Below, piece after piece: positions 500 through 59,355 of a stretch of DNA of 64,000 bases. The DNA is taken from positions 12,879 through 76,878 of the forward strand of contig JAEETF010000016.1 in the NCBI GenBank assembly GCA_016290195.1, read 5' to 3'. The notes under the pieces were generated by a model that was not told the origin of the DNA, did not search any database, and worked only from the letters and a program-made list of their open reading frames with translations. Origin of the DNA: Bacilli bacterium (GTDB lineage Bacteria > Bacillota_I > Bacilli_A > RF39 > UBA660). Position numbers and translations under genes: made by a program. The number at the start of each line of letters is the position of its first letter. Within the stretch, counting starts at the first letter, position 1.

Positions 500-1534
500 A
501 TGGCATTAAAAGGTGTTGTAATTGATGCTGGACATGGTGGTGCTGATCCAGGGGCTATTGGTAATGGTTACCAAGAAAAAAATATTAATTCTATGATGGC
601 AGATTATATGTTTAATAGATTTAATGAACTTGGTATTCCAGTTAAATATGTTAGAAGTACTGATGAAACATTATCTCCTAAAGATAGAACTAGAGAGATA
701 CTTGAAGCATATGGTAATGACCCAGATGTACTAGTTATATCTAATCATATAAATGCGGGAGGTGCTGAAGGAGCTGAAGTAATATATGCACTTAGAAATG
801 ATGGTCAGTTTGCCAGTTTAATACTAGAAGGATTAGAGGAAGCTGGTCAAAAAACTAGAAAAGTATATCAAAGGAGACTACCTAGTAATCCATCAAAAGA
901 TTATAATTTTTTATTTCGTGATACAGGTGTTACAGAACCAGTAATAGTTGAATATGGTTTTATAGATAATGCTAAAGATATAAATAGGGTAGTTGATAAT
1001 GCTGAAAAATATGCTGAAGTAGTTGTTAAGGCAGTTACAGATTATAAAAATTTACCATATACTGCTCCCGGTGAAAAAAATAATACAGCATTTACTTATA
1101 ACGTTCAAAATGGTGATACTTTATGGAGTATATCTAAAAAATATAACTTAAAAGTAGATGATATAAAGCGTGCTAATAATCTTATAAATGATACTTTAAA
1201 AATAGGGCAAAAACTCTTGATTCCTATTACAAATGATGAAAGTAATGTTTATATTGTTCAAAGTGGAGATACATTATATGCGATTGCAATTAAAAATAAT
1301 ATAAGTGTTGATGAATTAAAAAAAGCTAATAATTTAAAAAGTAATTTACTTAGTATTGGTCAAAAGTTAATTATTCCAAATAATAGTAAAGAAGTAGAAT
1401 ATGTTGTTAAAGCAGGAGATAGTTTATGGAAAATAGCTAGACTATATAATACAACTGTAAATGATATAAAAAAATTTAATAGTTTAACAAGTGATTTGTT
1501 AAAAATAGGACAAGTTCTTAAATTAGTAATTTAA
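500..1534 (+). CDS. N-acetylmuramoyl-L-alanine amidase (Amidase_3) with three C-terminal LysM repeats
   Basis: N-terminal 'VVIDAGHGGADPGAIGNG' is a typical Amidase_3 start. Three LysM units follow (YNVQNGDTLWSISKKYN, YIVQSGDTLYAIAIKNN, YVVKAGDSLWKIARLYN). RBS 'agaggtga' precedes the ATG. Confidence 0.85.
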   Translation: MALKGVVIDAGHGGADPGAIGNGYQEKNINSMMADYMFNRFNELGIPVKYVRSTDETLSPKDRTREILEAYGNDPDVLVISNHINAGGAEGAEVIYALRNDGQFASLILEGLEEAGQKTRKVYQRRLPSNPSKDYNFLFRDTGVTEPVIVEYGFIDNAKDINRVVDNAEKYAEVVVKAVTDYKNLPYTAPGEKNNTAFTYNVQNGDTLWSISKKYNLKVDDIKRANNLINDTLKIGQKLLIPITNDESNVYIVQSGDTLYAIAIKNNISVDELKKANNLKSNLLSIGQKLIIPNNSKEVEYVVKAGDSLWKIARLYNTTVNDIKKFNSLTSDLLKIGQVLKLVI

Positions 1535-2917: not shown

Positions 2918-2971
2918 ATTAATAAAGGACATAATTAGTCCTTTTTTTCATATATTTTTATAGGTGAAAAT

Positions 2972-4045
2972 ATGAAGAAAATAATTATAATTTTATTTTT
3001 AGTATTGTTTCCTATAAAAGTATTTGCTCTTGAAACAAGTGCCACAAGTTCTATTTTAATGGATCAAGATTCACATAGAATTTTATATGCTGATAATATT
3101 CATAAAGTTCGTGGAGTAGCTTCCATTTCTAAAATAATGACAGCAATATTAGCTTGTGAAAGTGGTAAACTTGATGATGTTATAACTATTAATGAAAGTA
3201 TAAATAGTGCATATGGATCAGGTATTTATATTAAAGTAGGAGAAGAATTAACATTACGTGATTTAGTATATGGACTTATGCTTAGAAGTGGTAATGATGC
3301 AGCAAGTGCTATAGCTGATTATGTTGGTGGAGATATAGATAAGTTTGTTGAAATGATGAATAACAAAGCTAAAGAAATTGGAATGAAAAACTCTAAATTT
3401 AATAATCCTAGTGGTCTTGATGATAATGGTGGTAATCTTTCAACTGCATATGATATGGCTCTTCTTATGAGTTATGCAATGAAAAATAAAGAATTTAAAA
3501 CAATAACAGGTACAAAAGTTTATAAATTAAAAACAAATATGAATTATTATTCTTGGATAAATAAAAATAAATTACTAAATAGTTATAAATATACAACTGG
3601 TGGTAAAACAGGATTTACTGATGTAGCTAAAAGAACATTAGTTACAACAGCTACAAAAGATAATTTAAATTTAGTAGCAGTTACTTTAAATGATGGTAAT
3701 GATTTTATAGATCATAAAAATTTATTTGAATATGGATTTAGTAAATATAAAAATTATTCTATTTTAGAATCAGGAATAATAAATATATATGATGAAAATT
3801 ATTATGGTAAAAGTGAATTTTATATTAATAATTCATTTTCATATCCATTACTTGAAACAGAGCAAAGTAGTATTAAATTAAAATTTTTAATAGAGAAAAA
3901 AGAAGATATTAAGAGTAATGAAGAAATAGGTAATGTAGAAGTATTTATTGGTGATAAAAAAATATATGAAGATATTTTGTTTATAAGAGAAAAAGAAAAT
4001 GACAAAGCTGGCTTTTTTACTAAATTAAGGAGCTTATTTAAATGA
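2972..4045 (+). CDS. dacB: D-alanyl-D-alanine carboxypeptidase (PBP5*-type, sporulation-associated)
   Basis: Signal peptide, SxxK active site 'ASISKIMTA', 'SGN' motif 'LRSGNDAA'. Sits directly upstream of spmA-spmB as in the Bacillus dacB operon. Confidence 0.8.
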   Translation: MKKIIIILFLVLFPIKVFALETSATSSILMDQDSHRILYADNIHKVRGVASISKIMTAILACESGKLDDVITINESINSAYGSGIYIKVGEELTLRDLVYGLMLRSGNDAASAIADYVGGDIDKFVEMMNNKAKEIGMKNSKFNNPSGLDDNGGNLSTAYDMALLMSYAMKNKEFKTITGTKVYKLKTNMNYYSWINKNKLLNSYKYTTGGKTGFTDVAKRTLVTTATKDNLNLVAVTLNDGNDFIDHKNLFEYGFSKYKNYSILESGIINIYDENYYGKSEFYINNSFSYPLLETEQSSIKLKFLIEKKEDIKSNEEIGNVEVFIGDKKIYEDILFIREKENDKAGFFTKLRSLFK

Positions 4046-4626
4046 TAAATAAATTATGGGCATTATTTATTATAATTGGAATTATTACATTTATTATAAC
4101 TGGTGATTATGAAGGCTTAAATGCAACTATTTTAAATAGTGGTCAAAAAACATTTGATATGGTTATTAAAATATTTCCAGTAATAGCTTTATGGCTTGGT
4201 ATTATGGAAATCGCAACTGCCTCAGGGTTGCTTAAAAAACTATCAAATTTATTTTATCCTATTTTAAAACACCTTTTTCCAGAAATACCTAAAGATAATA
4301 AAGCACTTGGATATATATCAAGCAATATCATAACTAATATGTTTGGTCTTGGAAATGCAGCTACACCATTTGGTTTAAAAGCAATGAAAGAACTTCAAAA
4401 ACTTAATAAGAAAAGAAACGAAGCAACAAGAAGCATGATTACTTTTTTAGTAATTAATACTAGTGGAGTCACTATTTTTCCAACAACAGTTATATCACTT
4501 CGTATGATGTATGAAAGTAAAAATCCATCAGAAATAATACCAATATGTATTTTAACAACATTTATTTCATTAATGATTGCTATTATGATTGATAAAATAT
4601 TTGCTAGAAGGTATCAACATGAGTAA
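4042..4626 (+). CDS. spmA: spore maturation protein A (nucleoside-transporter/Gate-domain membrane protein)
   Basis: ~194 aa polytopic membrane protein with ATGA overlap onto dacB; size and position match SpmA. Confidence 0.75.
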   Translation: MINKLWALFIIIGIITFIITGDYEGLNATILNSGQKTFDMVIKIFPVIALWLGIMEIATASGLLKKLSNLFYPILKHLFPEIPKDNKALGYISSNIITNMFGLGNAATPFGLKAMKELQKLNKKRNEATRSMITFLVINTSGVTIFPTTVISLRMMYESKNPSEIIPICILTTFISLMIAIMIDKIFARRYQHE

Positions 4627-5119
4627 TCTAATATTACCAGGTATTGTTATTATTGTTATTATTTATGGATTATATAAAAAAAGAGATATTTATAATGATT
4701 TTACTAATGGTGCAAAGCAAAGTTTTAATATGATTTTTGAAATGTTTCCATCAATGCTAGCTATGATTTTAGGTATTAATTTGTTACTTGACAGTGGTTT
4801 TATTACTAAAATATTTAGTATTTTTTCATTTAAGTTTTTACCAGTAGATATTTTTCCTATGGCCATATTAAGACCAATATCTGGAAGTTCTACATTAGCA
4901 GTTTTAACAAATATTTTTAAAGTTTCAGGACCAGATAGTTTAGCAGGTAGAATAGCTTCTATAATACAAGGATCTACTGATACAACTATTTACGTTTTAA
5001 CATTATATTTTGGAACTATTGGTATAAAAAAAATAAAATATGCTTTAACTGTAGGACTTATTTCAGATTTAATTAGTATTGTAACAGCTATTATTTTAGT
5101 AAATATATTTTTTCATTGA
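4619..5119 (+). CDS. spmB: spore maturation protein B
   Basis: ~166 aa membrane protein immediately after spmA. ATG 4619 is chosen (RBS 'agaagg') rather than the upstream in-frame ATG 4589, which overlaps spmA. Confidence 0.75.
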   Translation: MSNLILPGIVIIVIIYGLYKKRDIYNDFTNGAKQSFNMIFEMFPSMLAMILGINLLLDSGFITKIFSIFSFKFLPVDIFPMAILRPISGSSTLAVLTNIFKVSGPDSLAGRIASIIQGSTDTTIYVLTLYFGTIGIKKIKYALTVGLISDLISIVTAIILVNIFFH

Positions 5120-5159
5120 AAAAGTGTTTAATTTAATGTATAATTCATTAAAGGTGATG

Positions 5160-5882
5160 GACATGGAAAGAATCCAAAAAATAATAGCTAATCGTGGCTA
5201 TTGTTCTAGAAGAAAAGCTGAAGAATATATTTTAGCTGGTAAAGTAAGATTAAATGGTGAAATAGTAAAAGAACTTGGTACTCTTGCACAACCAAGTGAT
5301 ATTATTGAAGTTAATGGCGATATTATTAAACAAGAAGATAAAGAGTATATATTACTTTATAAACCACGTGGTGTAATTACTTCAACAAATGATGATAAAA
5401 AAAGAAAAACAGTTATTGATATAGTTAAAAGCAAAAAAAGAATTTATCCTGTAGGACGACTTGATTATGATACTAGTGGTATACTTTTACTTACTAATGA
5501 TGGTGAATTAACTAATAGCTTGATTCATCCTAAAAATGAAATAGAAAAAATGTATATTGCAAAAGTAAAAGGATTTGTAAATAAGGATGATATTAAATCA
5601 CTATGTAGGGGTGTAGTAATTGATGGATATAAAACTGCACCTGCTAAAGCAAAATTAAAAAAATATGATCGTTCAACTAATACTTCAATTGTAGAATTAA
5701 TAATTCATGAAGGAAAAAATCATCAAGTTAAAAAGATGTTTAGTACTTTAGGTTATGAGGTTTTAAAACTAAAAAGAGAAACTTTTGCCTTTTTAAATCT
5801 TAATGGATTAAAATCTGGTGAATATCGTAATTTAACTCCAAAGGAAGTAAAAATTTTATATAGTTTAGTACAAAAAAAGTAA
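5160..5882 (+). CDS. rluB: 23S rRNA pseudouridine synthase (RsuA/RluB family, S4 domain plus PseudoU_synth_2)
   Basis: N-terminal S4 'RIQKIIANRGYCSRRKAEEYI', catalytic 'PVGRLDYDTSGILLLTNDG'. RBS 'aaaggtga'. Confidence 0.8.
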   Translation, partial: DMERIQKIIANRGYCSRRKAEEYILAGKVRLNGEIVKELGTLAQPSDIIEVNGDIIKQEDKEYILLYKPRGVITSTNDDKKRKTVIDIVKSKKRIYPVGRLDYDTSGILLLTNDGELTNSLIHPKNEIEKMYIAKVKGFVNKDDIKSLCRGVVIDGYKTAPAKAKLKKYDRSTNTSIVELIIHEGKNHQVKKMFSTLGYEVLKLKRETFAFLNLNGLKSGEYRNLTPKEVKILYSLVQKK

Positions 5883-5897
5883 AGCCATGCTTTACTT

Positions 5898-6104
5898 TTA
5901 TTTTTCTTCTACTGAAATAGCACTTGTAGGGCAACCGCTTTCAGCACCCTCTACATTGTCTTTTTCATCATCTGTAAGACTATCAAAGTCTTCTTTTTTT
6001 ACAGTTGCAAATCCTTCATCACTAAGTTCAAATACATTTGGTTCAAATCCTTCGCAAGCTCCACAACCAATACATTTATCTTTATCAATACATATTTTTT
6101 TCAT
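5898..6104 (-). CDS. small clostridial-type [4Fe-4S] ferredoxin
   Basis: 68 aa with 'CIGCGACEGFEP' and a distal 'CP' cysteine; strong RBS AAGGAGG upstream on the - strand. Confidence 0.8.
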   Translation of the reverse strand: MKKICIDKDKCIGCGACEGFEPNVFELSDEGFATVKKEDFDSLTDDEKDNVEGAESGCPTSAISVEEK

Positions 6105-6210
6105 AATATTCCTCCTTGTTTAATTATAAAAAAAACTTATCTATTTTGCAAGTAAATAGTTTTAAAATGACAAAATTTATGTTATCATTATAATAATCGG
6201 GGTGATAGAT

Positions 6211-12553: not shown

Positions 12554-13588
12554 ATGAACATAAAACCTAGTTATTTAGTAAGAAATGAAATAAAAATTGA
12601 TAAGAGTAGTATGAAACTTCATTCACTATCGGATGCAATATTAGGTGAAAAAATAGATTCAAATATTCCTAATTTAGATAAATATGTTAATTTATATCAA
12701 AAAAATAGAAAAAAATTAGAAGATTCATTTGAACATTCATTAACTCTTACGATTGAAGAATTAAGATATTTAAGTAATTTGTATCCCAAAAAATTAAAGA
12801 AATTTAAAATATGGCTTTATATTCAAAAACCAGGAGAAATTGGATATGAAGAATTAAAAAAATTTAAAAATAACTTTAATATGTATGCAGTTGTTGTAAA
12901 TAATTTAATGACAAAGCATGGGAAATTTAAACCACATATGATTAATTATAATTTATATCTTGAATACTCTAAAAAATTATGGGATATTGTAAGTAATATT
13001 GATTATGAAGAATGCTATAATTCTAATAATCCGCAAATAAATGTTTTTTGTAAGCTTTTAAAAGAAATAGTTAATAATGTTCAAAGAGGAGATGCAGACG
13101 AAAGTTATACTGAAAAACTTAGTAAAAATTTACAAAAATTTGAAAGAATTCCAGATGAAATAATTGGCTTAGTAAGTGGCGAATGTGTATGTCGTGGGAT
13201 GAGTGGAATTATTAGAGATGCTTGTGCATTAATAGGTATTAAAACAAAAGTTATTAAGGGTGAAAGAGATATAGATGGTCATGCATGGAATCAAGTAAAA
13301 TTAAATGGTAATTGGTATAATGTTGATTTAACATGGGATCATGCAAATATTAAGAAAAATATGGCACCATATTTTATTTTGAAAAGTAATAAAGAATTTA
13401 ATAGAACACGTGTAATGGATGAATCTAATAATATATGTTGTCATGGCGATTATATTTATAAAAGAACACTAGAACATGAATGTAATGTTTCTATTCCAAA
13501 TGAAATGGTAGAGTATTATTTATATAATTCGAAAGCAAAAGATGTTAAAAATGAAGGAAGAATTAAAAAAATGTTATTACATTATTAG
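12554..13588 (+). CDS. transglutaminase-like cysteine protease-fold protein
   Basis: Cys-His-Asp core: 'GECVCRGMSG', 'DGHAWNQV', 'NVDLTWD'. Confidence 0.55.
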   Translation: MNIKPSYLVRNEIKIDKSSMKLHSLSDAILGEKIDSNIPNLDKYVNLYQKNRKKLEDSFEHSLTLTIEELRYLSNLYPKKLKKFKIWLYIQKPGEIGYEELKKFKNNFNMYAVVVNNLMTKHGKFKPHMINYNLYLEYSKKLWDIVSNIDYEECYNSNNPQINVFCKLLKEIVNNVQRGDADESYTEKLSKNLQKFERIPDEIIGLVSGECVCRGMSGIIRDACALIGIKTKVIKGERDIDGHAWNQVKLNGNWYNVDLTWDHANIKKNMAPYFILKSNKEFNRTRVMDESNNICCHGDYIYKRTLEHECNVSIPNEMVEYYLYNSKAKDVKNEGRIKKMLLHY

Positions 13589-13642
13589 TTCTTCTTTTTT
13601 CTTTTATAAAATTAGAGTATAATAAAATTAGGAAGAGATATT

Positions 13643-14254
13643 ATGACAAAGTATTATGATTTTAGAAAAGAAATTAATATTAAAGATTTAGATGAAATAA
13701 TAAAAAATTTTAATGATAATGGAGTAGTTATTTTTCCTACTGAAACGGTATTTGGAATTGGTGGTAATGCTTTTTCAAATGAAGTTATAAATAGAATCTA
13801 TGATATAAAACAAAGACCTATATCAAAGAATGTTAATATTATGGTTGGAAATAAAAAACAAATAGAAGAGTATGCATATGTAAATGAAAAAGAGAAAAAA
13901 ATAATAGAAAAATATATGCCTGGTGAAATTACAATAATATTAAAAAAGAAGAAAGAACTTAATAGTTATGCTTTTGATAATGATACTATAGGTATTCGCA
14001 TTCCAAATAATAATATAATGCTTAAAATACTTTCTAAATTAGAATTTCCAATTGTTGCAACAAGTGCCAATATAAGTGGCGATGGTAATTATAATTATGA
14101 AGATATTAAAAAACATTTTGATGGTAAAGTAGATGCGATTATTAATGGAGTAGTAGGTTCTAATACCCCTTCTACTATAGTTAAAGTAGTAAATAATAAT
14201 ATTGAGGTATTAAGACAAGGAAAGATAGTAATAGATAGTGAGTTGATAAAATGA
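13643..14254 (+). CDS. tsaC: L-threonylcarbamoyladenylate synthase (YrdC/YwlC/TsaC family)
   Basis: 'VVIFPTETVFGIGGNAFS', 'IGIRIPNN', 'VATSANISG'. Confidence 0.8.
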   Translation: MTKYYDFRKEINIKDLDEIIKNFNDNGVVIFPTETVFGIGGNAFSNEVINRIYDIKQRPISKNVNIMVGNKKQIEEYAYVNEKEKKIIEKYMPGEITIILKKKKELNSYAFDNDTIGIRIPNNNIMLKILSKLEFPIVATSANISGDGNYNYEDIKKHFDGKVDAIINGVVGSNTPSTIVKVVNNNIEVLRQGKIVIDSELIK

Positions 14255-15081
14255 TAGAATTTCATGCTGATGATTATGGTATGACTATAAAACAAAGTAA
14301 GAGAATTATTGAATGTATTGATAATGGAGTTTTAAATGGAATTAGTTTGATGCCTAATAGTCCTAATTTAGATGAATGTATGAATTTACTTCAAAATCGT
14401 GATGTAAAAATAGCTATTCATTTTAATTTTTGCGAAGGTAAATGTTTATCAGAAGAAAGAATAATTGCTAAAAGTGGCAATTTTGAACCTAATTTTATTA
14501 AATTACTTTTAGTTTCTTATATACCTTTTGAAAGAAAAAAATATAAAAATGCTTTTAAAAAAGAAATTGAAAAACAAATAGAGGCAGTATCAAAGTATTA
14601 TACTAATAAACCATATCGTATTGATTCTCATTGTCATTATCATATGCTTCCAGTAATATTTGATGCTTTAATGGAAGTAATAGAAGAGAAAAAAATGGAT
14701 GTTGAATATATACGTATTCCTATTGAAAAAAAATTAAAGATTAAACCTAAAAATGTACCTTTTGTTAATAGAATTAAAAATTTAATATTAAAAATATTAT
14801 ATAAACGTGATAAATTTAAAAATAAAAAACTAATTAAATATGGTAATAAAGAATTTTTAGGCATATTATTTTCAGGACATATGTTTTATGAAAGCGTTAG
14901 TGTAATGTTACAAAATAAATTAGATAATATTGAAATACTATTTCATCCAGGCGCAATTTATGAGAAGGAAGATATGGATATTATTACTAATAAATTTGAT
15001 CTAGAATTTTTAACTAGTCCAAATCGTCAAAAAGAGGGCGAAGCTACTATTAAAATAAAAAATGATTTAGAGAAAATGTGA
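14251..15081 (+). CDS. YdjC/ChbG-family carbohydrate deacetylase
   Basis: 'EFHADDYGMT', 'IDSHCHYHMLP' metal-binding motifs; ATGA overlap with tsaC. Confidence 0.7.
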   Translation: MIEFHADDYGMTIKQSKRIIECIDNGVLNGISLMPNSPNLDECMNLLQNRDVKIAIHFNFCEGKCLSEERIIAKSGNFEPNFIKLLLVSYIPFERKKYKNAFKKEIEKQIEAVSKYYTNKPYRIDSHCHYHMLPVIFDALMEVIEEKKMDVEYIRIPIEKKLKIKPKNVPFVNRIKNLILKILYKRDKFKNKKLIKYGNKEFLGILFSGHMFYESVSVMLQNKLDNIEILFHPGAIYEKEDMDIITNKFDLEFLTSPNRQKEGEATIKIKNDLEKM

Positions 15082-31944: not shown

Positions 31945-32712
31945 ATGAAAAAAGTAAGACTTTTAGTAGTAGATGATAATAAAAATTTAGTAGATATGAT
32001 CAAAGAATATTTTAAAGAAAATAATGAAATAGAAGTTTTATATACAGCTTATGATGGGGAAGAAGGAATAGAATTAATACAAAAAGAAAAAGATAATTAT
32101 GATGTAATTATGCTCGATTTAATAATGCCTAAAAAAGATGGATTATATGTATTAGAAGAAATGAAAAAGAGAAATATTGAAAAACAAGTTATAGTAGCAA
32201 CTAGTTATAATGCTAGTGATATAATAAGAAAAGTTTCAGAAATGGGAGTTAGTTATTTTATATTAAAACCATTTGATTTAGTAGATTTAGAAAGAAGAAT
32301 AAAGGATTCAGTAACTTTGTCAAAAACCGAAGAAAAAAATATAGATTTGTACCATAATAATATTCAAGTATCAATTACAAAAGTTCTTCATGAACTTGGT
32401 ATACCATCACATATTAAAGGATATCAGTATATACGTGAGGGAATAGGAATTATATATGATAAACCAGAAACTATAGGAGGCATTACTAAAGAATTATATC
32501 CCGAATTAGCTGAAAAATTTGATACTACTGTATCTAGAGTTGAAAGAGCAATACGGCATGCGATAGAAGTTAGTTGGAATAGGGGTAGTTGGGATTTAAT
32601 GGAAGAAATATTTGGGCATAGTGTTGATATTGATAAAGCAAAACCAACTAATTCTGAATTTATTGTTACTATTGCTGATAAATTACGCCTTGAACATCAT
32701 AAAGTAAGATAA
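31945..32712 (+). CDS. spo0A: sporulation master regulator Spo0A
   Basis: Receiver domain with 'LLVVDDN', 'DVIMLDLIMP'. Spo0A_C signature 'HIKGYQYIREGI' and 'ELYPELAEKFDTTVSRVERAIRHAIEVSW'. Confidence 0.9.
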   Translation: MKKVRLLVVDDNKNLVDMIKEYFKENNEIEVLYTAYDGEEGIELIQKEKDNYDVIMLDLIMPKKDGLYVLEEMKKRNIEKQVIVATSYNASDIIRKVSEMGVSYFILKPFDLVDLERRIKDSVTLSKTEEKNIDLYHNNIQVSITKVLHELGIPSHIKGYQYIREGIGIIYDKPETIGGITKELYPELAEKFDTTVSRVERAIRHAIEVSWNRGSWDLMEEIFGHSVDIDKAKPTNSEFIVTIADKLRLEHHKVR

Positions 32713-40429: not shown

Positions 40430-40873
40430 TTAATTTGCAATATCTACGTATGTATCATTTAAACATCTAATAGCACATATACAATTTAGATTTATAGTAA
40501 AGAAACTATTTGTTGTTAAATATGGGATTGTTGCTGATGTAGTTTCATCGGTATTTTCAGTTAATACTCTAAAAGTGGCACAGCAACCATCTATTTTTTC
40601 AATTCTAAAAACGCTAGAACATACTACTCCTTCATCACCACAAGTGCTATCTGTTTTAGTAGTTGGCATTGTCCATGGTGTTAATCCATTGCTAAAAGTA
40701 GTATAAAGCATTACTGGTCTAGTATTAAGTCCTATAATTGATGTTCCATTACCAAGAAAACCACGATCACAACAATCTAAACATTTATCATCTATACAAG
40801 CTGCATTTTTTTGAAGTATAGCTATAACTTTTAATATTTCAGAAATGCATCCACAAGTTTGATTTTCACACAT
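40430..40873 (-). CDS. CotY/CotZ/ExsY-family cysteine-rich spore coat/exosporium protein (paralog 1)
   Basis: 'FRIEKIDGCCATFRVL' and 'CICAIRCL' match the CotY/CotZ 'FRVEK..DCCATL' and 'CFCAIQCL' blocks. Start placed at the Met with RBS 'gggtgg'. Confidence 0.65.
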   Translation of the reverse strand: MCENQTCGCISEILKVIAILQKNAACIDDKCLDCCDRGFLGNGTSIIGLNTRPVMLYTTFSNGLTPWTMPTTKTDSTCGDEGVVCSSVFRIEKIDGCCATFRVLTENTDETTSATIPYLTTNSFFTINLNCICAIRCLNDTYVDIAN

Positions 40874-40984
40874 ATATTTTCCACCCTTTCTTTTCATATG
40901 TATTATATTCACTAAGTAAAAAGTTGTGTGAACAAGTGTCCATTTTTAATAACAAATACATATATTAATGTGAGGAGTGATAAC

Positions 40985-41437
40985 ATGTATGAAATATATC
41001 AAATGCCTAATGATCAAACTATAGAAGAATTAAGTAATAATTTAGGTATTGATTTAACACTATTAAAAAACATAAATGGTATTAGAGATAATAAATATTT
41101 AGAAGCAAGTAGTTATATTATTATTCCTAAAAGAGAAAATGATAATTTTAAAACTTATATTGTCCAAACAGGAGATACAATTATAGATATTGCAAATAAA
41201 AATAATTTAGATTACTTACAACTTTTAGAATTAAATGGCCTAGATAAAGAAGAATATATTTATCCTGGACAGGAAATATTAATACCTAATAATATTTTAT
41301 TTTGGATAACTAAAGATAATAATACACTTGAAGATATTGCTAATAAATTTAATACAACAATAGAAGAAGTAATAAAAAATAATAAAAATATATATTTAAA
41401 GCCTGAACAATTATTTATTTTGAAAAAAAGAACTTAA
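40985..41437 (+). CDS. LysM-domain protein (two LysM repeats)
   Basis: 'YIVQTGDTIIDIANKNNL' and 'ITKDNNTLEDIANKFNT'. RBS 'gaggag'. Divergent from the CotY-like gene. Confidence 0.65.
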   Translation: MYEIYQMPNDQTIEELSNNLGIDLTLLKNINGIRDNKYLEASSYIIIPKRENDNFKTYIVQTGDTIIDIANKNNLDYLQLLELNGLDKEEYIYPGQEILIPNNILFWITKDNNTLEDIANKFNTTIEEVIKNNKNIYLKPEQLFILKKRT

Positions 41438-41928: not shown

Positions 41929-42930
41929 ATGAATAAAGATATTGAAGTGATGAACTTTGATGAAGAAAAAAATAAGAGTAATTTAAATTTTAGTGTTATA
42001 GAGAGTTATGGCGAAGATTTAACTGCCAAAACATATATTACTAATCCCGCAATTGCTCGTGAAGAAGAAATTAAAAAATTAATGATAGTATTAATGACTC
42101 CTGAAAAATCTGGATTGTTAATAGGAAAACCAGGTATTGGTAAAACAGCAATCGTAGAAGGATTATCATATTTGATTCAAAAAGGTGAAGTTCCCAATGC
42201 TTTAAAAGGCTATCGTATTATAAAATTTAATTCTACTGCTCTTGTAGGAACTATTACTATGAATGGTGAAGAAAAAATGATTATGAGTTTATTTGTTTCA
42301 GAAGCAAAAAAACTTTCAAAAACTATTTTATTCATAGATGAAATTCATACCCTTATGGGAGCTAAGAATGCTGGACCACTTGATTTAGCTAATATTTTAA
42401 AACCAGGACTAGATCGTGGTGAAATAAAACTTATAGGTGCAACAACAACTATTGAATATGATACATATGTAATTCGTGACCGTGCATTCTTACGTCGTTT
42501 TGATCGTATTGATGTAGAAGAACCAGATGAAAAAACAACAACTAAAATTTTAATAGGAACACTTCCTAAGATTGAAAAACAAACAGGTATAAGATTTAAA
42601 TATAGAGATTATGTAGCTGAGCAAGTTATTGATTCAATTGTAAGTGCAACTTCAGAATTTAAACGTGTATATGGCTTATCAGCAATGTATCCAGATGTAT
42701 CACTATCTGTATTAACACAAGCTTTTTCATATGCATTGTTATCTAATAAAGATGAAGTAGATTTAATGGATGTATATAATGCTATTAAAAATAGTAAGAG
42801 AATTTATCCTGATAGTATAGTAAAAGAACTAGCAGCTTTTAGGACAAAATTTGAAAAACTTTGTGAAAAAGAAAATATAACTCTTCCAATTGTTACATTG
42901 GAAGAAATAAGTACAGATATTCGTGATTAG
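41929..42930 (+). CDS. standalone AAA+ ATPase corresponding to a single ClpB/ClpC D1 module (no N-domain, M-domain or D2)
   Basis: 'GEDLTAKTY', 'ITNPAIAREEEIKKLMIVL', Walker A 'GKPGIGKTAIVEGL', Walker B 'ILFIDEIHTLMGA', 'IGATTTIEYDTYVIRDRAFLRRFDRIDVEEP'. Confidence 0.7.
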   Translation: MNKDIEVMNFDEEKNKSNLNFSVIESYGEDLTAKTYITNPAIAREEEIKKLMIVLMTPEKSGLLIGKPGIGKTAIVEGLSYLIQKGEVPNALKGYRIIKFNSTALVGTITMNGEEKMIMSLFVSEAKKLSKTILFIDEIHTLMGAKNAGPLDLANILKPGLDRGEIKLIGATTTIEYDTYVIRDRAFLRRFDRIDVEEPDEKTTTKILIGTLPKIEKQTGIRFKYRDYVAEQVIDSIVSATSEFKRVYGLSAMYPDVSLSVLTQAFSYALLSNKDEVDLMDVYNAIKNSKRIYPDSIVKELAAFRTKFEKLCEKENITLPIVTLEEISTDIRD

Positions 42931-47638: not shown

Positions 47639-48457
47639 ATGAAGATCGAATTATTAGATAGTAAAGGTGTTCCATTTAGTTTAGTTAGATATTTTAATTT
47701 TAATAATCTTCAACTATTAATATATGTAACAAATGAAACACTTGATGAACAAGGCCGTTCAACTATTTATATATCAAAAATTGAAAATAATGGGGTATTA
47801 TCAGCAAATGTAGTTCCAGATGGAGAATGGGATATTGCTAAAAATATAATTAAGGATATTGTTAATGCAAATAAAAATGGACAACCATTACCAGTTGTTG
47901 ATTTAGATTATAATAATCTTGAAGGTATACAAATTAATGGTTCTAAAGCTTTAAAATTAATGTCAAACTATGTAGAAATATTAAAAGCTAATCAACCTAT
48001 ATTTGAAAAGGCTATTGTAAATAATATGGTTAATAATTCAGAACCAACTGGAAATTTTGAAAATGTAATTACTGATAATGTTGTATCTTTTGATCAAAAT
48101 CCTGGTATGTCAGTTTTTACACAGCCACCAGTATTTGAACAACAACCAGAACCTACAGTTCAACAATATCAACCAATTCCAGAAACTCAAGCCCCAGTAT
48201 TTGAACAACCTGTTCAAAATACAGTAGATTCAATGAATCAACCATTTCAACCAGTTCAAGATAGTGTAGTTACTAATATTCAGCCAGTTCAAAAATTTAA
48301 TAATAGTTATACACCATCAGTAAATGATAATATATCTGCTGCTGAAGATTATCAAAAATTATATTTTGAACAATTAGAACTTAATGAACAATTAAAATTA
48401 AAAATAGAAGATTATGAAAATAAATTGGAAACTTTAAAAAGTATAATTAATGAATAA
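47639..48457 (+). CDS. hypothetical protein: N-terminal DUF1292-like domain, Gln/Pro-rich linker, C-terminal coiled coil
   Basis: 'IELLDSKGVPFSLVRYFNF...IENNGVLSANVVPDGEWD'. RBS 'aaagggaggt'. Confidence 0.4.
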   Translation: MKIELLDSKGVPFSLVRYFNFNNLQLLIYVTNETLDEQGRSTIYISKIENNGVLSANVVPDGEWDIAKNIIKDIVNANKNGQPLPVVDLDYNNLEGIQINGSKALKLMSNYVEILKANQPIFEKAIVNNMVNNSEPTGNFENVITDNVVSFDQNPGMSVFTQPPVFEQQPEPTVQQYQPIPETQAPVFEQPVQNTVDSMNQPFQPVQDSVVTNIQPVQKFNNSYTPSVNDNISAAEDYQKLYFEQLELNEQLKLKIEDYENKLETLKSIINE

Positions 48458-48481
48458 TTATACTTTTTTTCATATAATTAA

Positions 48482-51845: not shown

Positions 51846-52538
51846 ATGTTTTACGATGAAAAACAAGCTATGGATGCGTGCAAAGAAAATCCACTGCTCA
51901 TATTTGATTTCATTAAAATGGGGTATAAGGGTTTGGTTGATAAATTATTAGCAAAAGAAATTGTTAATGTAAATATGAAAGATGAAAATAATACAGATGT
52001 TATTTCAACTTTGTTAATGAGAAATTGGAACGATTTAGTTCTAAAATATATGAAGAAAAAATCATGGAATGTTAATAGTCAAAATAATGATGGCGATACA
52101 TTTGCACATATCTTAGTTACTAAGAAATATTTAGATGTATATCCAATTGTTGAAACATTACTAAAAAAAGAAAATTTAGTTCCTAATTTAAGAAATAAAA
52201 AAGGTGAAACTATTCTTGATAGAGCTATCAATAGCAATTATATTTCTATAACTGCAAAGATATTATCAGATGAAAGATTTAATAATATTGATTTAGTATC
52301 ATTTAGAAATTTATATGAGAACTATATTAAAAATGATAATTATGGTAAATATTCTAAGATTAGTAATTTAGAAATTATAGTAGATAATCTACAAGAAAAG
52401 AAGTTACATCCTAATATAAAGAAATTATTAAATTTAATAGTTGTTAACTATGAAGTTATTAAAGATGAAGTAGAAAACAATAATATTAGTTTTTTAGATA
52501 CTTTAGTTAATAATTATATTGATAATGTTATTTCCTAA
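51846..52538 (+). CDS. hypothetical protein
   Basis: No recognisable family (helical-repeat-like). Confidence 0.35.
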   Translation: MFYDEKQAMDACKENPLLIFDFIKMGYKGLVDKLLAKEIVNVNMKDENNTDVISTLLMRNWNDLVLKYMKKKSWNVNSQNNDGDTFAHILVTKKYLDVYPIVETLLKKENLVPNLRNKKGETILDRAINSNYISITAKILSDERFNNIDLVSFRNLYENYIKNDNYGKYSKISNLEIIVDNLQEKKLHPNIKKLLNLIVVNYEVIKDEVENNNISFLDTLVNNYIDNVIS

Positions 52539-54070: not shown

Positions 54071-54487
54071 ATGGATGGAACTTATAGCGATGCATACAAT
54101 GCTGGTTATGCTATGGGACAAGCTTTCAGAATGAGCACACCAATGTTAATATTTTCATTAGTTGTTGCAGTATTTTCAATCGTTTGTATGTGGAAAGTAT
54201 TTAAGAAAGCTGGCCGTAATGGTTGGGAAGCAATCGTTCCTATTTACAATATTGTAGTTTTATTCCAAATTTCTGGAGTTAATCCACTACATATTTTATG
54301 GTTACTTTTACCATTCGTTGGTTCAATTGTTTTCTTAGTTTTCGCAATCAAAGCTTACGTTAATTTATCTAAGAGCTTTGGTAAGAGTACTGGATTTGCT
54401 GTTGGATTAGTTTTATTAAGTACTATCTTCATGGCAATTTTAGCCTTCGATAGTAGTACTTATACAGCTTTACCTGAAGCTAAGTAA
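54071..54487 (+). CDS. hypothetical small membrane protein
   Basis: Three TM helices. Confidence 0.4.
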   Translation: MDGTYSDAYNAGYAMGQAFRMSTPMLIFSLVVAVFSIVCMWKVFKKAGRNGWEAIVPIYNIVVLFQISGVNPLHILWLLLPFVGSIVFLVFAIKAYVNLSKSFGKSTGFAVGLVLLSTIFMAILAFDSSTYTALPEAK

Positions 54488-54512
54488 AAAAATGCATTTA
54501 ATGCATTTTTTT
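54487..54512 (+). terminator. intrinsic terminator
   Basis: 'aatgcatttaatgcatt' plus 'ttttttt'. Confidence 0.65.
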
Positions 54513-54574
54513 TATGTATTAATATTAATCTAATTATTCACTTCATATTATATATTAGGAGGATGGATGAACAT

Positions 54575-54881: not shown

Positions 54882-55286
54882 TTATATACAACTTACAAAA
54901 GTATCATCTAGGCACTTAATTGCCCCAAGACAATCTAAATTAACTGTGAAAAAAGAATTAGTAGCAACATAAGGATTAGGTGATTCTGTGTCAGGATTAG
55001 GTGCTAATACACGACAAGTACAACAACAACCTTCTTGAGCCTCAACTCTAAAAACACTACTTGTATCATCAGTGCCATTTAAAGTATATGGCATAGTTAA
55101 TAGAGTATTATTGCAACATGTATATAATGTAATAGGCCTTGTATTATAACATCCATTTGTTAAACAAGGTCCTAAAAAAGGTTTATCACAAGAGTCTAGT
55201 GTATCATCAATTACTTGACTTCTTTTTTGTAAGTTAATAATCGTACATAAGATGTTACTTAAGCCAGAACAGTTATTATTTTCCAT
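54882..55286 (-). CDS. CotY/CotZ/ExsY-family cysteine-rich spore coat/exosporium protein (paralog 3, downstream of tandem pair)
   Basis: 'FRVEAQEGCCCTCRVLAPNPD' and 'CLGAIKCL'. Strong RBS AAGGAGG. Only 10 nt after paralog 2. Confidence 0.65.
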   Translation of the reverse strand: MENNNCSGLSNILCTIINLQKRSQVIDDTLDSCDKPFLGPCLTNGCYNTRPITLYTCCNNTLLTMPYTLNGTDDTSSVFRVEAQEGCCCTCRVLAPNPDTESPNPYVATNSFFTVNLDCLGAIKCLDDTFVSCI

Positions 55287-55296
55287 TTATCCTCCT

Positions 55297-55707
55297 TTAT
55301 AAACAACTGATATATGTATCAGCTAAACATCTAATAGCACAAGTACAATCTAAATTTATACTAACAAAATCATTAGTTGTAACATAAGGATTAGGTGAGG
55401 TTTGATCAGGATTAGGAGCTAATACACGACAAGTGCAAGAGCATCCATCAACTTTCTCAACTCTTAGTACTGATGAAGTACCTACAACTTTTTCTTCTTC
55501 ATAAGTTGTAGAGTAGGGAAATGAGAGTACAGAACCAGTACAATTATATAAACTTAGTGGTCTTGTGTTATATGAAAGACAGCTATTTTGTCTTCCTAAA
55601 ATGGGACTATCACAAGTATTTTGGATATTTTCCACTTTATTACAATTATTTTGTAGAATGACAATAGTATTCAATATATCACTTATACAACAATTGTTAT
55701 TTGACAT
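55297..55707 (-). CDS. CotY/CotZ/ExsY-family cysteine-rich spore coat/exosporium protein (paralog 2, first of tandem pair)
   Basis: 'LRVEKVDGCSCTCRVLAPNPD' and 'CTCAIRCL'. RBS 'aaaggggtgg'. Confidence 0.65.
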   Translation of the reverse strand: MSNNNCCISDILNTIVILQNNCNKVENIQNTCDSPILGRQNSCLSYNTRPLSLYNCTGSVLSFPYSTTYEEEKVVGTSSVLRVEKVDGCSCTCRVLAPNPDQTSPNPYVTTNDFVSINLDCTCAIRCLADTYISCL

Positions 55708-55870: not shown

Positions 55871-56185
55871 ATGAAATATGAATATATTATAATTGCCATT
55901 ATACTTATTATTTTGTTGTTAGCGGTTATCAAAGCTAATAAAAAAGATGTTAAGTTAGATATGAATAAATTAGTTGAATATCTTGGCGGTAAAGATAATA
56001 TTTTAGATGTTGAATATAACTTATCTAGATTTATTGTTACTCTAGAAGATATAACTAAAGTAAACAAAGAAGCTATTCAAAAACTAGGAGCTAGAGGAAT
56101 AGTAGAGATAGATAATCAACTTAAAATTATACTTGGATCTAATTCTAAACAGTTAAAAAAGTATATTGACGACATGAAGCGATAA
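55871..56185 (+). CDS. membrane-anchored protein with a degenerate PTS EIIB(Glc)-like domain lacking the catalytic Cys
   Basis: 'LVEYLGGKDNILDVEYNLSRFIVTLED...LGARGIVEID' parallels EIIB 'LGGKENI..V.HCATRLR..VKD...LK.LGA.GV'. Terminator 'aagcgataaaaaaatcgctt' follows. Confidence 0.45.
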   Translation: MKYEYIIIAIILIILLLAVIKANKKDVKLDMNKLVEYLGGKDNILDVEYNLSRFIVTLEDITKVNKEAIQKLGARGIVEIDNQLKIILGSNSKQLKKYIDDMKR

Positions 56186-56261: not shown

Positions 56262-57497
56262 ATGCAAATATTTTATTATCTTATTAAGACAATTGTTTTT
56301 ATTTGTTTTCCGTTACTAATATCAATAATATGTATTGCCTATAATAATAATCTAAATAAAAAAGAACAAGATATTATTCATGAAGTAGCGATTCTATCAT
56401 CTTTCTATTTAACGGCAAAATTTATTGAACCAGACAATATGTTTTATTTACTTTTTATTAATATTCCACTTCTTATGAGTTTTTTAAGAAAAAGTAAAGG
56501 ATTATCCTTAATTTTATCATTAGTATTAGCTTTGTATTATCATTTATCATTTGATTTTAACTTATACTTGGTTCTTCTAGAATATATGTTTTACTATGTT
56601 TTCTTTCTTTATTTTTTAAGAAAAAAACTGACATCAGAAATTATTATTAATTGTTTTTCAATTCTAAAGGGATTAATCATAGCATTTGAAGTTCATATTT
56701 TAAGAATTAATAATTATGGTGATTTAAAAACCATTTTTATAATCTTTTTAGCTATGACTATTTTTTATATTTTGTCTTATGGTATTTTATTTGTTTTAAA
56801 AAAGGGAAAGGAAGCAATCGAACTAAATAAAGTATTAAAGGAATTAGAAAATGAAAGAATAATTAAAAATTCTTTATTTAAAATTACTCATGAAATAAAA
56901 AATCCTATTGCGGTATGCAAAGGATATTTGGACATGATGGATTATAATAATCCCAATCAAGTAGAAAAATATAGTACTATTATAAAGTCAGAACTTAATA
57001 GATCCTTAGTTATCATGGATGATTTTGTAGATTATTCAAGGATAAAAATAAAGCCAGATATTATGGATATTATCTTGCTATTAGAAGATGTAACTGATTC
57101 AATGATATCATTATTTAAAATTAACAAATGTAAGTTAATAAAGGATATTTATGATGATGAAGTATTAATATATGGTGATTATGATAGATTGAAACAAGCA
57201 CTTGTAAACATTATTAAAAATGCTATTGAAGCATCAAAAGATAAAAAGAGTGTTCACATTACTACTAAATTACTAAAGAATAATATTATAATTAAAATAA
57301 AAGATAATGGAGTAGGTATAAAGAAAGAGGACTTAGATCACATTGGTGAACTATTTTATACTACTAAAGAAAAAGGAACTGGGCTCGGGATAAGTCTATC
57401 TAAAGAGATAATTAATGCCCATGATGGAGAACTAAACTATGAGTCAACATTGGGAAAAGGAACAGAAGTAACTATTAAATTACCAATAAAAAACTAA
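56262..57497 (+). CDS. orphan sensor histidine kinase (polytopic N-terminal sensor, HisKA and HATPase_c)
   Basis: H-box 'ITHEIKNPIAVCKGYLDMM'; N-box 'IIKNAIEAS'; G-boxes 'DNGVGI', 'GTGLGISL'. No response regulator adjacent. Confidence 0.85.
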   Translation: MQIFYYLIKTIVFICFPLLISIICIAYNNNLNKKEQDIIHEVAILSSFYLTAKFIEPDNMFYLLFINIPLLMSFLRKSKGLSLILSLVLALYYHLSFDFNLYLVLLEYMFYYVFFLYFLRKKLTSEIIINCFSILKGLIIAFEVHILRINNYGDLKTIFIIFLAMTIFYILSYGILFVLKKGKEAIELNKVLKELENERIIKNSLFKITHEIKNPIAVCKGYLDMMDYNNPNQVEKYSTIIKSELNRSLVIMDDFVDYSRIKIKPDIMDIILLLEDVTDSMISLFKINKCKLIKDIYDDEVLIYGDYDRLKQALVNIIKNAIEASKDKKSVHITTKLLKNNIIIKIKDNGVGIKKEDLDHIGELFYTTKEKGTGLGISLSKEIINAHDGELNYESTLGKGTEVTIKLPIKN

Positions 57498-57507
57498 CTA
57501 AAAATAG

Positions 57508-57672
57508 TTAGTAATAAATAGGATATGTATTATAAATTGGATATTGATAAGGATATCTATATGGATAAGGTCTATATATTAAAGGCGCTGCTAATAATCC
57601 TGCTGCAAATGGTAAAATAAAGCCCCCATTAAAATTATTGTTTTGTGGTGGACGTCTAAAATTATTATACAT
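57508..57672 (-). CDS. unannotated 54-aa Tyr/Pro-rich small protein (MYNNFRRPPQNNNFNGGFILPFAAGLLAAPLIYRPYPYRYPYQYPIYNTYPIYY)
   Basis: Translated by hand from the - strand. RBS 'aaaggagac' 4 nt before the ATG. Shorter than the 60-aa ORF-track cutoff. Confidence 0.5.
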   Translation of the reverse strand: MYNNFRRPPQNNNFNGGFILPFAAGLLAAPLIYRPYPYRYPYQYPIYNTYPIYY

Positions 57673-57679
57673 AAAAGTC

Positions 57680-57718
57680 TCCTTTCAATTTATTTTATGC
57701 CATTGTTAATAAGATGTT
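57680..57718 (-). promoter_or_regulatory. sigma-K-type sporulation promoter (AC-16 nt-CATAaaaTA) upstream of the small Tyr/Pro-rich ORF
   Basis: - strand reads 'ttaACatcttattaacaatggCATAaaaTAaattgaaaggag'. Confidence 0.4.
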
Positions 57719-57720
57719 AA

Positions 57721-57745
57721 AAAAAGAAATATTGCTATTTCTTTT
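57721..57745 (-). terminator. intrinsic terminator of the - strand metallophosphoesterase gene
   Basis: - strand 'agaaatagcaatatttct' plus 'ttttttt'. Confidence 0.55.
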
Positions 57746-58652
57746 TTATTCTATATAAATTGATACTAGGAACACTATTAAATCTTACTTTTAAGGTACT
57801 TGTACCAATACCATTAGATATGTAAATATCTTTATTATTGATATTGTAATAAGGTTTATATAATTTCTTACTGCCATATGGTAAGGCAATTGGTTTAATT
57901 AAAGGTAGTCTTACTTGACCATTGTGTGAATGACCTGCAAGTATTAAATCACAATCATATTTATAAATAAATTCATAAATATAATCTGGTTCGTGAGTTA
58001 GAATTATTCGATAATTTACATCTTTAATACTTTCATCATCTAGTTTTTCCATACTTGGTTTGCCAATAGTTAAATCATCTGTTCCATAAATTAAGATAGG
58101 GCTATTATCTAAGTTATAAATAAGATCGTAATCATTTTTTAAATAAACAAAATCACTATCAGTCATTATTTGTTCAAAATACTTGTTTGTTTCATCGTGG
58201 TTGCCAATTACAGAGTATTTACCTAAGTTAGATTTAAGCCTTTTTAATTCACGAGTTAGTAACTTAACTTCATCATCTTTTAAAGTATATTTTCTTTCAA
58301 CTAAATCTCCTGTAAAGACAATAATATCTGGTTCTAAACCATTTATCTTATCTACAACCTTTTTTAACTCATTTTCCATTATAGTACTACCATAGTGAAG
58401 ATCACTAAAATGAACTATTTTTAAGCCATTATAGTTTTCGGTTATATCTTTGTTAGTTGTAACAGTATGTTCGTGTACTTTTAATCTATATGGTTCAATT
58501 GTAAAAGCATAAACTATAGTTAAAATAAATAATAGTAAAAGTCCCCATAACAACTTTTTAAATTTGACTTTAGCTTTTTCTCTTTGCTCTTGTATTTTTT
58601 CTTCTTTTTCTTCTTTTAACTTCTTTTCAGTTCTTTCTAATCTACTTGCCAT
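57735..58652 (-). CDS. membrane-anchored metallophosphoesterase (calcineurin-like, YkuE-type)
   Basis: 'HFSDLHYG', 'FTGDLV', 'GNHD', 'GHSHNGQ'; N-terminal Lys/Glu-rich tail and a TM helix. Confidence 0.8.
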   Translation of the reverse strand: MASRLERTEKKLKEEKEEKIQEQREKAKVKFKKLLWGLLLLFILTIVYAFTIEPYRLKVHEHTVTTNKDITENYNGLKIVHFSDLHYGSTIMENELKKVVDKINGLEPDIIVFTGDLVERKYTLKDDEVKLLTRELKRLKSNLGKYSVIGNHDETNKYFEQIMTDSDFVYLKNDYDLIYNLDNSPILIYGTDDLTIGKPSMEKLDDESIKDVNYRIILTHEPDYIYEFIYKYDCDLILAGHSHNGQVRLPLIKPIALPYGSKKLYKPYYNINNKDIYISNGIGTSTLKVRFNSVPSINLYRIKKK

Positions 58653-58665
58653 ATAATCACCTCAT

Positions 58666-59355
58666 TTAATGCAGTAAAAGCGACATAATTACTAAAATAG
58701 TATTATGAAACGCATGAAATAAAATTGGTACAAAAATATTTTCTTCTTTAACATACATCAGTGCAAACATACTTCCTACAGCCCCATAAGGAATTATATA
58801 TAAAAGTTCTGTTGGACTAGTAGCGTTAGCGAGTGTATGAATATAACCAAATAATAATCCACTCATAATGATGAAAACAATATTAGTTGGGAAAACATTT
58901 CTTAAAGTTTTACGAAACAATATTTCTTCAATGAATGGTGCAAAGATACAAGCACTATAAATCATATATAGGGGAGCTTTATGTAACTCTTCCTGGACAA
59001 TTTGTTCATTAACAGCGGCACCTCTATTGATCATAATTGATATAAATATATTAGAAAACATCATAACTATCAAGCCTATTAAGTAATATCTAATGTTCCT
59101 ATTTATAAGACTAAGGCCCTTATCTTTAAATTCCTTTAGCTCTTTTTTTAAACTTTTACGATAGATAATAATAATTATTATCATATATAAGATGCCGGAA
59201 AATACTGTTAATAAGTGTTTAGTACTATCAGGTAAATTATTCATATCTAAGTTAAAGATTAATATTGGTATAAATGCAAATATAGTGTATATCAAGTAAC
59301 TGCCAATAAGTAAAAAATTTTTTAAAACATCTATGAACTTTTTAATAATAATCAC
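58666..59355 (-). CDS. CPBP-family intramembrane metalloprotease (CAAX protease/Abi-like)
   Basis: 'EEILFRK', 'FGYIH', 'HAFHN' motifs. GTG start. Confidence 0.75.
   Translation of the reverse strand: MIIIKKFIDVLKNFLLIGSYLIYTIFAFIPILIFNLDMNNLPDSTKHLLTVFSGILYMIIIIIIYRKSLKKELKEFKDKGLSLINRNIRYYLIGLIVMMFSNIFISIMINRGAAVNEQIVQEELHKAPLYMIYSACIFAPFIEEILFRKTLRNVFPTNIVFIIMSGLLFGYIHTLANATSPTELLYIIPYGAVGSMFALMYVKEENIFVPILFHAFHNTILVIMSLLLH

Follow-up and report, generated by a model that had tools for sequence, protein, structure and literature searches.

A 54-codon Tyr/Pro-rich gene near CotZ-like genes of an uncultured ruminant-gut Bacilli bacterium and its possible role in the spore envelope

The window, that is, the whole 64,000-nt stretch of DNA analysed here, carried on its minus strand a small ORF of 54 codons, preceded by a Shine-Dalgarno region and a promoter-like element and bracketed by two hairpins (Table 1). 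Its upstream neighbours were genes for a membrane-anchored metallophosphoesterase and a CPBP protease, and on the downstream side it was convergent with a histidine-kinase gene. The tandem CotY-like genes that the preliminary description of this locus had placed about 2 kb away corresponded to a CotZ-like pair (54882..55707) at a distance of 1.8 kb.

Table 1. Positions of the small ORF, its flanking elements, the segments of its product and selected genes in the window
Feature	Position	Strand	Description
dacB-spmA-spmB-like operon	2972..5119		
Spo0A gene	31945..32712		Spo0A_C and receiver domain
CotZ-family gene, tandem 1	54882..55286	-	Pfam PF10612
CotZ-family gene, tandem 2	55297..55707	-	Pfam PF10612
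Downstream hairpin	57485..57512	-	ACUAACUA-UUUU-UAGUUAGU, then U-run; dG -9.7 kcal/mol, z -3.1
Small ORF	57508..57672	-	54 codons, ATG start; protein MYNNFRRPPQNNNFNGGFILPFAAGLLAAPLIYRPYPYRYPYQYPIYNTYPIYY, 54 aa
ATG of small ORF	57672..57670	-	4 nt after AAAGGAGAC
Shine-Dalgarno region	57685..57677	-	AAAGGAGAC; GGAG core 6 nt before ATG
-10-like box	57691..57699	-	CATAAAATA; CATAnnnTA, mother-cell sigma type
-35-like dinucleotide	57716..57717	-	AC, 16 nt upstream of -10-like box
sigma-A-like -35	57715..57720	-	TTAACA, overlaps AC
Upstream A/U hairpin	57720..57747	-	AAAAAAGAAAUA-GCAA-UAUUUCUUUUUU; dG -8.8 kcal/mol, z -4.6
Metallophosphoesterase gene	57735..58652	-	membrane-anchored, YaeI/LpxG-like; upstream neighbour of small ORF
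CPBP protease gene	58666..59355		CPBP/Rce1-like; two genes upstream of small ORF, in operon with metallophosphoesterase gene
N-terminal segment	residues 1-17		polar, Asn/Arg/Pro-rich; most variable of the three segments
Hydrophobic helix	residues 18-33		FILPFAAGLLAAPLIY; invariant in 8/8 variants
Tail	residues 33-54		YRPYPYRYPYQYPIYNTYPIYY; Tyr/Pro/Arg-rich (45% Tyr, 23% Pro, 9% Arg)

The genome was very AT-rich (25.6% GC) and belonged to an uncultured Bacilli bacterium of the ruminant gut, an endospore former judging by spo0A, a dacB-spmAB-like operon and three CotZ-like genes in the window. The closest named relatives of the Spo0A protein were MAG proteins annotated as 'sporulation transcription factor Spo0A [Bacilli bacterium]', with 77-78% identity. 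Two of the three CotZ-family proteins in the window were encoded by the tandem pair, a protein with an Amidase_3 domain and three LysM domains was also encoded, and a YutH-family coat gene was located nearby in relatives. Genes for pyruvate formate-lyase and its activase were present in the window as well, which points to an anaerobic host.

The small ORF translated exactly as quoted in the preliminary description, and the ribosome binding site that had been called strong was found where it had been placed, four T residues (4 nt) separating AAAGGAGAC from the ATG. The ORF had also been described as unannotated; it was indeed absent from the supplied gene track, but independent gene callers had predicted it in many public metagenome assemblies, and its JGI annotation reads 'hypothetical protein'. 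Pairwise comparison with two more divergent orthologue groups gave dN/dS values of 0.06-0.16, with synonymous sites near saturation (pS 0.49-0.68, dS 0.8-1.7), a non-synonymous divergence of 0.08-0.13, and 17-24 synonymous versus 10-15 non-synonymous differences per orthologue pair. Because purifying selection was evident at near-saturated synonymous divergence, the ORF is almost certainly a genuine, selectively maintained protein-coding gene, and selection appears to act on the peptide since GC-containing Pro codons were retained in a genome of such low GC content. A chance open frame in intergenic DNA might be suspected from the short length, the low complexity and the lack of a match to any protein family. 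This explanation is scarcely credible, being effectively refuted by the purifying selection; moreover, a Pro content of 17% has a probability of about 8e-6 at 25.6% GC, AAAGGAGAC and the start codon were invariant (7/7 aligned loci), and the ORF was reported independently by the gene callers mentioned above.

Searches for homologues yielded eight protein variants of 54 to 62 aa, all from metagenome contigs and all in the same gene context. Among 5.8 billion proteins searched by word index, there were 3 close clusters only, and a profile HMM run against 1.84 billion representative proteins detected nothing beyond the query's own cluster. With Pfam and NCBIfam, neither the ORF product nor the variants had a match at E <= 0.1, nor at E <= 10; at the latter threshold, three variants run against NCBIfam matched no family, the YjcZ model included. 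Since CotT, a known coat protein, has no Pfam or NCBIfam model either, the silence of these databases is uninformative with respect to coat function. Within the window, no further Tyr/Pro-rich ORF was found.

The gene order, CPBP protease, metallophosphoesterase and small ORF, convergent with the histidine-kinase gene, was kept in all of the 22 related loci (L003 to L024). A gene call on the plus strand downstream of the ORF in L024, which would have broken this order, was rejected after alignment revealed the usual 3' end of the kinase gene. When genome contigs were scanned with the metallophosphoesterase, two distant loci of 38-39% identity were obtained, one of them with a CPBP partner, but neither contained a Tyr/Pro-rich small ORF, while the same scan of metagenome contigs returned a single locus that was already in the set. 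Conservation of the ORF, to which the preliminary description had looked as a check, was thus seen alongside the preserved gene order of the 22 related loci but did not extend to the two distant ones. The family appears to be a lineage-restricted orphan that occurs in a few close relatives only, and because the distant loci keep the metallophosphoesterase without a comparable ORF, it would seem to be young or fast-evolving. Young or fast-evolving families are common among outer spore-layer proteins. The metallophosphoesterase and CPBP genes form a conserved context, and any functional link between them and the small ORF is putative.

The protein was Tyr/Pro-rich, as had been described, with 20% Tyr (background 4.8%, P ~4e-5) and 17% Pro (background 2.5%, P ~8e-6), and possessed no Lys, Asp or Glu (P ~5e-7 by background composition). 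The alignment of the 8 variants contained 42 invariant columns. In the tail, four overlapping YxY motifs formed a run of alternating Tyr residues (Y-x-Y-x-Y-x-Y-x-Y), accompanied by YP[IV]Y units, and the variant P0006, found in one lineage, carried an additional 7-residue unit within the tail; this expansion of a repeat unit was counted in favour of a structural role because such expansion is typical of structural low-complexity proteins. The hydrophobic stretch FILPFAAGLLAAPLI had a mean Kyte-Doolittle value of 2.2 over 15 residues and contained small-xxx-small packing motifs (AAGLLAA). AlphaFold, run on a shallow alignment, predicted with low confidence (pLDDT 57) a single helix at residues 19-32 and coil elsewhere.

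These features bear on the main competing explanation, that the product is an ordinary small single-pass membrane protein without a structural role in the spore, for instance one that assists or modulates a membrane protein encoded nearby, be it the orphan histidine kinase on the convergent side, the metallophosphoesterase or the CPBP protease. The hydrophobic stretch with its predicted helix (19-32), its strict invariance, the small-xxx-small motifs that are typical of helix-helix contacts in membranes, the Arg residues on either side of the helix, and the invariant gene order with three membrane proteins all fit such a protein. With 15-16 residues and two Pro, however, the helix region is marginal in length for spanning a bilayer, and the loci that keep the metallophosphoesterase, in one case together with CPBP, but have no small ORF argue against an obligatory partner. 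A regulatory role would also leave a tail with 45% Tyr and a repeat expansion unexplained. This alternative is considered possible, if rather unlikely.

The small size and hydrophobic core, together with the CPBP/Rce1-like gene two genes upstream, would also be compatible with a peptide that is secreted or acts on membranes, for example a type I toxin or a product resembling a bacteriocin, for which the CPBP ('Abi') protease would supply immunity or processing. A double-glycine leader, for which Gly-Gly at residues 16-17 of the window copy was the candidate, was rejected since the other variants have GS, GN or NGS at this site. There was no leader-like sequence, and no ABC transporter, C39 peptidase or response regulator gene was found nearby; in a distant relative, the CPBP-phosphoesterase pair occurred without the ORF. 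For a type I toxin, the strong, exposed ribosome binding site and the stable chromosomal gene order are uncharacteristic, and an Rfam scan of 57300..57900 revealed neither an antisense RNA nor a member of an Rfam family. Such a peptide is therefore regarded as highly improbable.

The upstream hairpin was a perfect 12-bp A/U stem with the stop codon of the metallophosphoesterase gene in its loop. Both arms were conserved in 7/7 aligned loci, the loop of L017 being 12 nt larger. It was not called by a terminator scan that required G+C-rich stems, and the sub-threshold matches of this A/U hairpin to plastid 3'UTR models, the only ones in the Rfam scan, were rejected as compositional. We interpret the hairpin as a weak element resembling a terminator, which may separate the metallophosphoesterase gene from the small ORF. 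The downstream hairpin, with a conserved stem and a variable loop among 7 loci, holds the stop codon of the small ORF and, on the other strand, that of the convergent histidine-kinase gene, and is likely to be a bidirectional terminator. Because conserved terminator-like hairpins bracket it, the small ORF looks like a short transcription unit of its own. Since the upstream hairpin consists almost wholly of A and U, transcripts of the CPBP-phosphoesterase operon may run through it, and this weakness is in line with the ordinary membrane protein considered above, which would be expressed vegetatively either by such read-through or from a sigma-A promoter.

As to the promoter, the preliminary description had reported AC followed after 16 nt by CATAAAATA, a match to the sigma-K consensus about 20 nt upstream of the ribosome binding site. 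The motif AC-16 nt-CATAAAATA was present at 57717..57691, which is 6-32 nt upstream of AAAGGAGAC; the distance had been overstated, as the -10-like box ends 5 nt before AAAGGAGAC. With the box at this position, a sigma-K-type start would leave an unusually short leader of about 12-15 nt. In both B. subtilis and C. difficile, sigma-K promoters are characterised by AC plus a CATA-type -10, as in AC-16/17-CATAnnnTA (PMC517825, PMC3789822). By number alone, the match was at chance frequency: AC-N16-CATANNNTA occurred 3 times in the window versus 4.68 +/- 2.5 expected from shuffles, and CATAAAATA alone 4 times versus 5.9 expected. The sigK gene was absent from the 64-kb window.

The match stood up better in the comparison of relatives, where it was conserved in register while the spacer was replaced or mutated. 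Eight distinct upstream haplotypes were aligned in a fixed register on the -10-like box. The six specified -10 positions (CATA and TA) and the C at -17 were invariant in 8/8 haplotypes, and the A at -18 was present in 7/8, one haplotype group having GC in place of AC, always 16 nt from the box; by contrast, 15 of the 19 spacer and nnn positions varied. The contrast between conserved and variable positions gave a Fisher p of ~0.001-0.002, with the 8 haplotypes not being phylogenetically independent. The only change inside the box, AAA to GAA in several strains, affects the nnn positions, which the consensus leaves free. Between the -10-like box and the ATG, the 19 nt were almost invariant; the DNA separating the upstream hairpin from the box was an indel hotspot with three unrelated spacer sequences, and in L016 the A of AC came from a substitution that turned the upstream gene's stop codon from TAG into TAA. 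It is this position-specific conservation across 8 haplotypes, not the motif count, that appears to set the promoter-like element above chance, and the pattern appears to be that expected for a bipartite AC-16-CATAnnnTA promoter. Sigma-K promoters are thus resembled in the exact AC-16-CATAnnnTA of the window and 7/8 haplotypes and in the variation at unspecified positions, and differ in their distance to the ribosome binding site, which is very short here, and in the GC -35 of one haplotype group.

Two other sigma factors can be read at the same site. TTAACA-17-TAAAAT scores 10/12 as a sigma-A (sigma-70-type) promoter and would suit vegetative expression of an ordinary membrane protein; sites of this type were found at chance frequency in the 25.6% GC sequence of the window. 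The sigma-A reading was 5/6 plus 5/6 in the window and L021, but its -35 dropped to 3 or 4/6 in the other lineages (5/8 haplotypes), which nevertheless retained AC/GC-16-CATAnnnTA. The second possibility is a mother-cell gene under sigma-E, whose product would be an early protein of the membrane or of engulfment, or one of the basement layer, and not a late coat component. Here, 7/8 positions of CATAAAAT agree with the sigma-E -10 consensus CATACA-T, and three short-spacer haplotypes admit the reading ATA-N18-CATA, C. difficile sigma-E promoters having been described as ATA-N16-CATA (PMC3789822); furthermore, B. subtilis cotT is itself controlled by sigma-E plus SpoIIID (PMC517825). The inserted-spacer haplotypes (window, L003, L004, L021, L017 and L018), however, lack ATA at 16-18 nt and all carry AC at 16 nt, and the box invariably ended in TA, a feature peculiar to the sigma-K consensus. 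A sigma-E gene of this kind is judged quite unlikely. On balance, it is somewhat probable that the small ORF has its own mother-cell-type promoter with sigma-K as the favoured factor, and the ORF is probably expressed in the mother cell.

Three groups of small spore proteins were compared with the 54-aa protein. CotC and CotU, the type to which it had been likened in the preliminary description, are small (~60-90 aa), Tyr-rich outer coat proteins of B. subtilis that are expressed late in the mother cell and have been proposed as cross-linking substrates; they are highly charged Lys/Asp/Tyr proteins. That label was not upheld: the 54-aa protein lacks Lys, Asp and Glu altogether and contains 17% Pro and an invariant hydrophobic helix, and no homology was found outside its own cluster by the profile search of 1.84 billion representatives. 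Proteins of the YjcZ family of Bacillus are tiny, with a hydrophobic helix and Gly/Tyr-rich flanks. The very small size and the hydrophobic helix would be shared with them, a putative likeness in architecture, whereas the flanks of the 54-aa protein are Tyr/Pro/Asn-rich instead of Gly/Tyr-rich and the NCBIfam search gave no match. The yjcZ gene belongs to the sigma-K regulon (PMC517825).

CotT, a B. subtilis inner spore-coat protein expressed in the mother cell and processed by YabG (PMC517825, PMC13553755), came closest. Its composition was measured directly on retrieved CotT sequences: the mature region contained 34% Tyr, 29% Pro and 10% Arg versus 45%, 23% and 9% in the tail (residues 33-54), and both were devoid of Lys, Asp and Glu. 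Both proteins are small and dominated by Tyr, Pro and Arg in the respective part, have short YP/PY-rich repeats and occur in a narrow clade, and neither is covered by a Pfam or NCBIfam model. They differ in that CotT possesses an acidic N-terminal propeptide and a C-terminal GYGGG repeat, neither of which occurs in the 8 variants, and lacks a hydrophobic helix; the motif at the small ORF fits sigma-K best, in contrast to the sigma-E plus SpoIIID control of cotT. BLASTP against CotT gave no alignment at E <= 100, and hhalign assigned a probability of 1.1%. CotT is the closest compositional analogue of the tail and is not homologous to it; by sequence, the 54-aa protein does not appear to be a member of the CotC/CotU, CotT or YjcZ families.

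Taken together, we tentatively favour a structural role in the spore envelope as the best single explanation for the 54-aa protein. From the sequence and its context, we infer the acting sigma factor, the timing of expression, the localisation in membrane or coat and the cross-linking of the protein as follows. The small ORF would be transcribed alone from a mother-cell sporulation promoter, sigma-K being the best fit, situated between the weak terminator hairpin and the ribosome binding site. The helix may anchor the protein, or cause it to self-associate, at the outer forespore membrane or within a hydrophobic coat matrix, and the Tyr/Pro/Arg tail could then be built into the outer spore layers, possibly via oxidative Tyr-Tyr cross-linking, in a role analogous to that of the compositionally similar CotT as a coat component in B. 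subtilis. Against this spore-envelope role, classic soluble coat proteins have no invariant hydrophobic helix of the kind seen here, which would suit an ordinary small membrane protein just as well, and no homology to any coat protein was found in the searches described above.

A more specific form of the envelope role, decidedly improbable as it stands, would be that of a membrane-anchored coat tether made in the mother cell, with the helix in the outer forespore membrane. Arg34 and Arg39 would keep the C-terminus facing the mother cell, and the alternating-Tyr tail might serve as a dityrosine or stacking anchor for the first coat layer or for a lattice layer of the CotZ/CotY type. Such a tether would have a role analogous to that of SpoVM in this uncultured Bacilli lineage, fulfilled by an unrelated, newly evolved sequence.

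To our knowledge, the spores of this uncultured ruminant-gut Bacilli lineage have never been studied. If the envelope role is correct, an orphan family would join the small Tyr-rich proteins of low complexity from which spore surfaces are built, its novelty relative to known Tyr-rich spore proteins lying in a membrane-type hydrophobic helix joined to a CotT-like Tyr/Pro tail. The scope is narrow, namely a family in a few close relatives with a function deduced from its sequence. Genes of this kind fall below common ORF-length cutoffs, yet purifying selection combined with in-register conservation of the promoter makes them recognisable.

CATAnnnTA boxes beside ribosome binding sites were also counted in the window, being present in 6 of 68 genes, where 2.7 were expected and the antisense control gave 4. 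This enrichment was weak and was not used as evidence that such boxes are a local -10 signal for sporulation. Besides genes adjacent to the coat genes, the candidates included the amidase-LysM gene and a gene for a LysM protein. A further point in favour of a sporulation promoter at the small ORF was a CATAAACTA box, invariant in four lineages, upstream of the neighbouring CotZ-like operon.

The segment between the -10-like box (CATAnnnTA) of the 54-aa Tyr/Pro-rich small ORF and the A/U hairpin upstream of it was an indel hotspot, located at nt 57700–57719 of the window and at the equivalent positions of L013 to L024, metagenome loci with the same gene order. The loci carried either no insert or one of approximately 18 or 24 nt, and the inserted sequences were unrelated to one another, despite which a C (usually AC) was constantly found exactly 16 nt from CATA. 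In one lineage, the small-ORF protein was a 62-aa variant (P0006; L017, nt 4724–4912) possessing an additional 7-residue unit of the YP[IV]YN type in its C-terminal tail, which demonstrates that the repeat number varies in this tail.

Features of the window, with positions in nt
Feature	Position	Strand	Remarks
Amidase_3 + 3xLysM gene	500–1534	+	CwlC-like; upstream of dacB-like gene
T-run, CATATA... box directly after, then RBS	2945–2971		Before dacB-like gene
dacB-like D-Ala-D-Ala carboxypeptidase gene, then two 'Gate'-domain genes	2972–5119	+	
spo0A	31945–32712	+	Receiver and Spo0A_C domains
Third CotZ-family gene	40430–40912	-	True ATG near 40872
LysM-domain protein gene	40928–41437	+	Divergent from third CotZ-family gene
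AAA ATPase gene	41929–42930	+	After LysM-domain gene
T-run, CATATA... box directly after, then RBS	48455–48481		Before YutH-like gene
230-aa ankyrin-repeat protein	51846–52538	+	Pfam Ank_2, E 1e-8
104-aa protein	55871–56185	+	Hydrophobic N-terminal segment; stand-alone PTS EIIB-like domain
Histidine kinase gene	56262–57497	+	Long polytopic N-terminal domain

The T-run/CATA/RBS layout was common to the dacB-like gene, the YutH-like gene and the small-ORF promoters of the relatives (TTTTTTTTCATAAAATA). The dacB-like gene and the two 'Gate'-domain genes had an arrangement resembling that of the dacB-spmA-spmB sporulation operon, and a CATAAATTA box was located 5 nt upstream of the RBS of the Amidase_3 gene. 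A second coat-type cluster in the window comprised a CotZ-family gene, a LysM-domain gene, with a CATATATTA box 4 nt upstream of its RBS, and an AAA ATPase gene, the product of which may be SpoVK-like.

The stop codon of the histidine kinase gene fell inside the hairpin that this gene shares with the small ORF, and in L017 the two genes overlapped by 4 nt. No response regulator was adjacent to the kinase gene, which is thus an orphan and a possible sporulation kinase. The closest named homologues of Spo0A were proteins of 'Bacilli bacterium' MAGs (77–78% identity). Hundreds of metagenome relatives shared 77–90% identity with it and point to a large, uncultured clade of sporulating bacteria.

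The gene for the PTS EIIB-like protein, with the CotZ-like genes on one side and the kinase gene on the other, was conserved in all relatives. An FtsW/RodA/SpoVE-family gene, flanked by a gene encoding an unknown protein of about 96 aa and a DUF5684 gene, was observed in relatives (L016, nt 5027–6124; L021, nt 13189–14274) and was absent at the corresponding site of the window (about nt 54487–54563) and of its closest strains. The ankyrin-repeat protein, containing a domain uncommon on a Bacilli chromosome, was kept at the same position in relatives.
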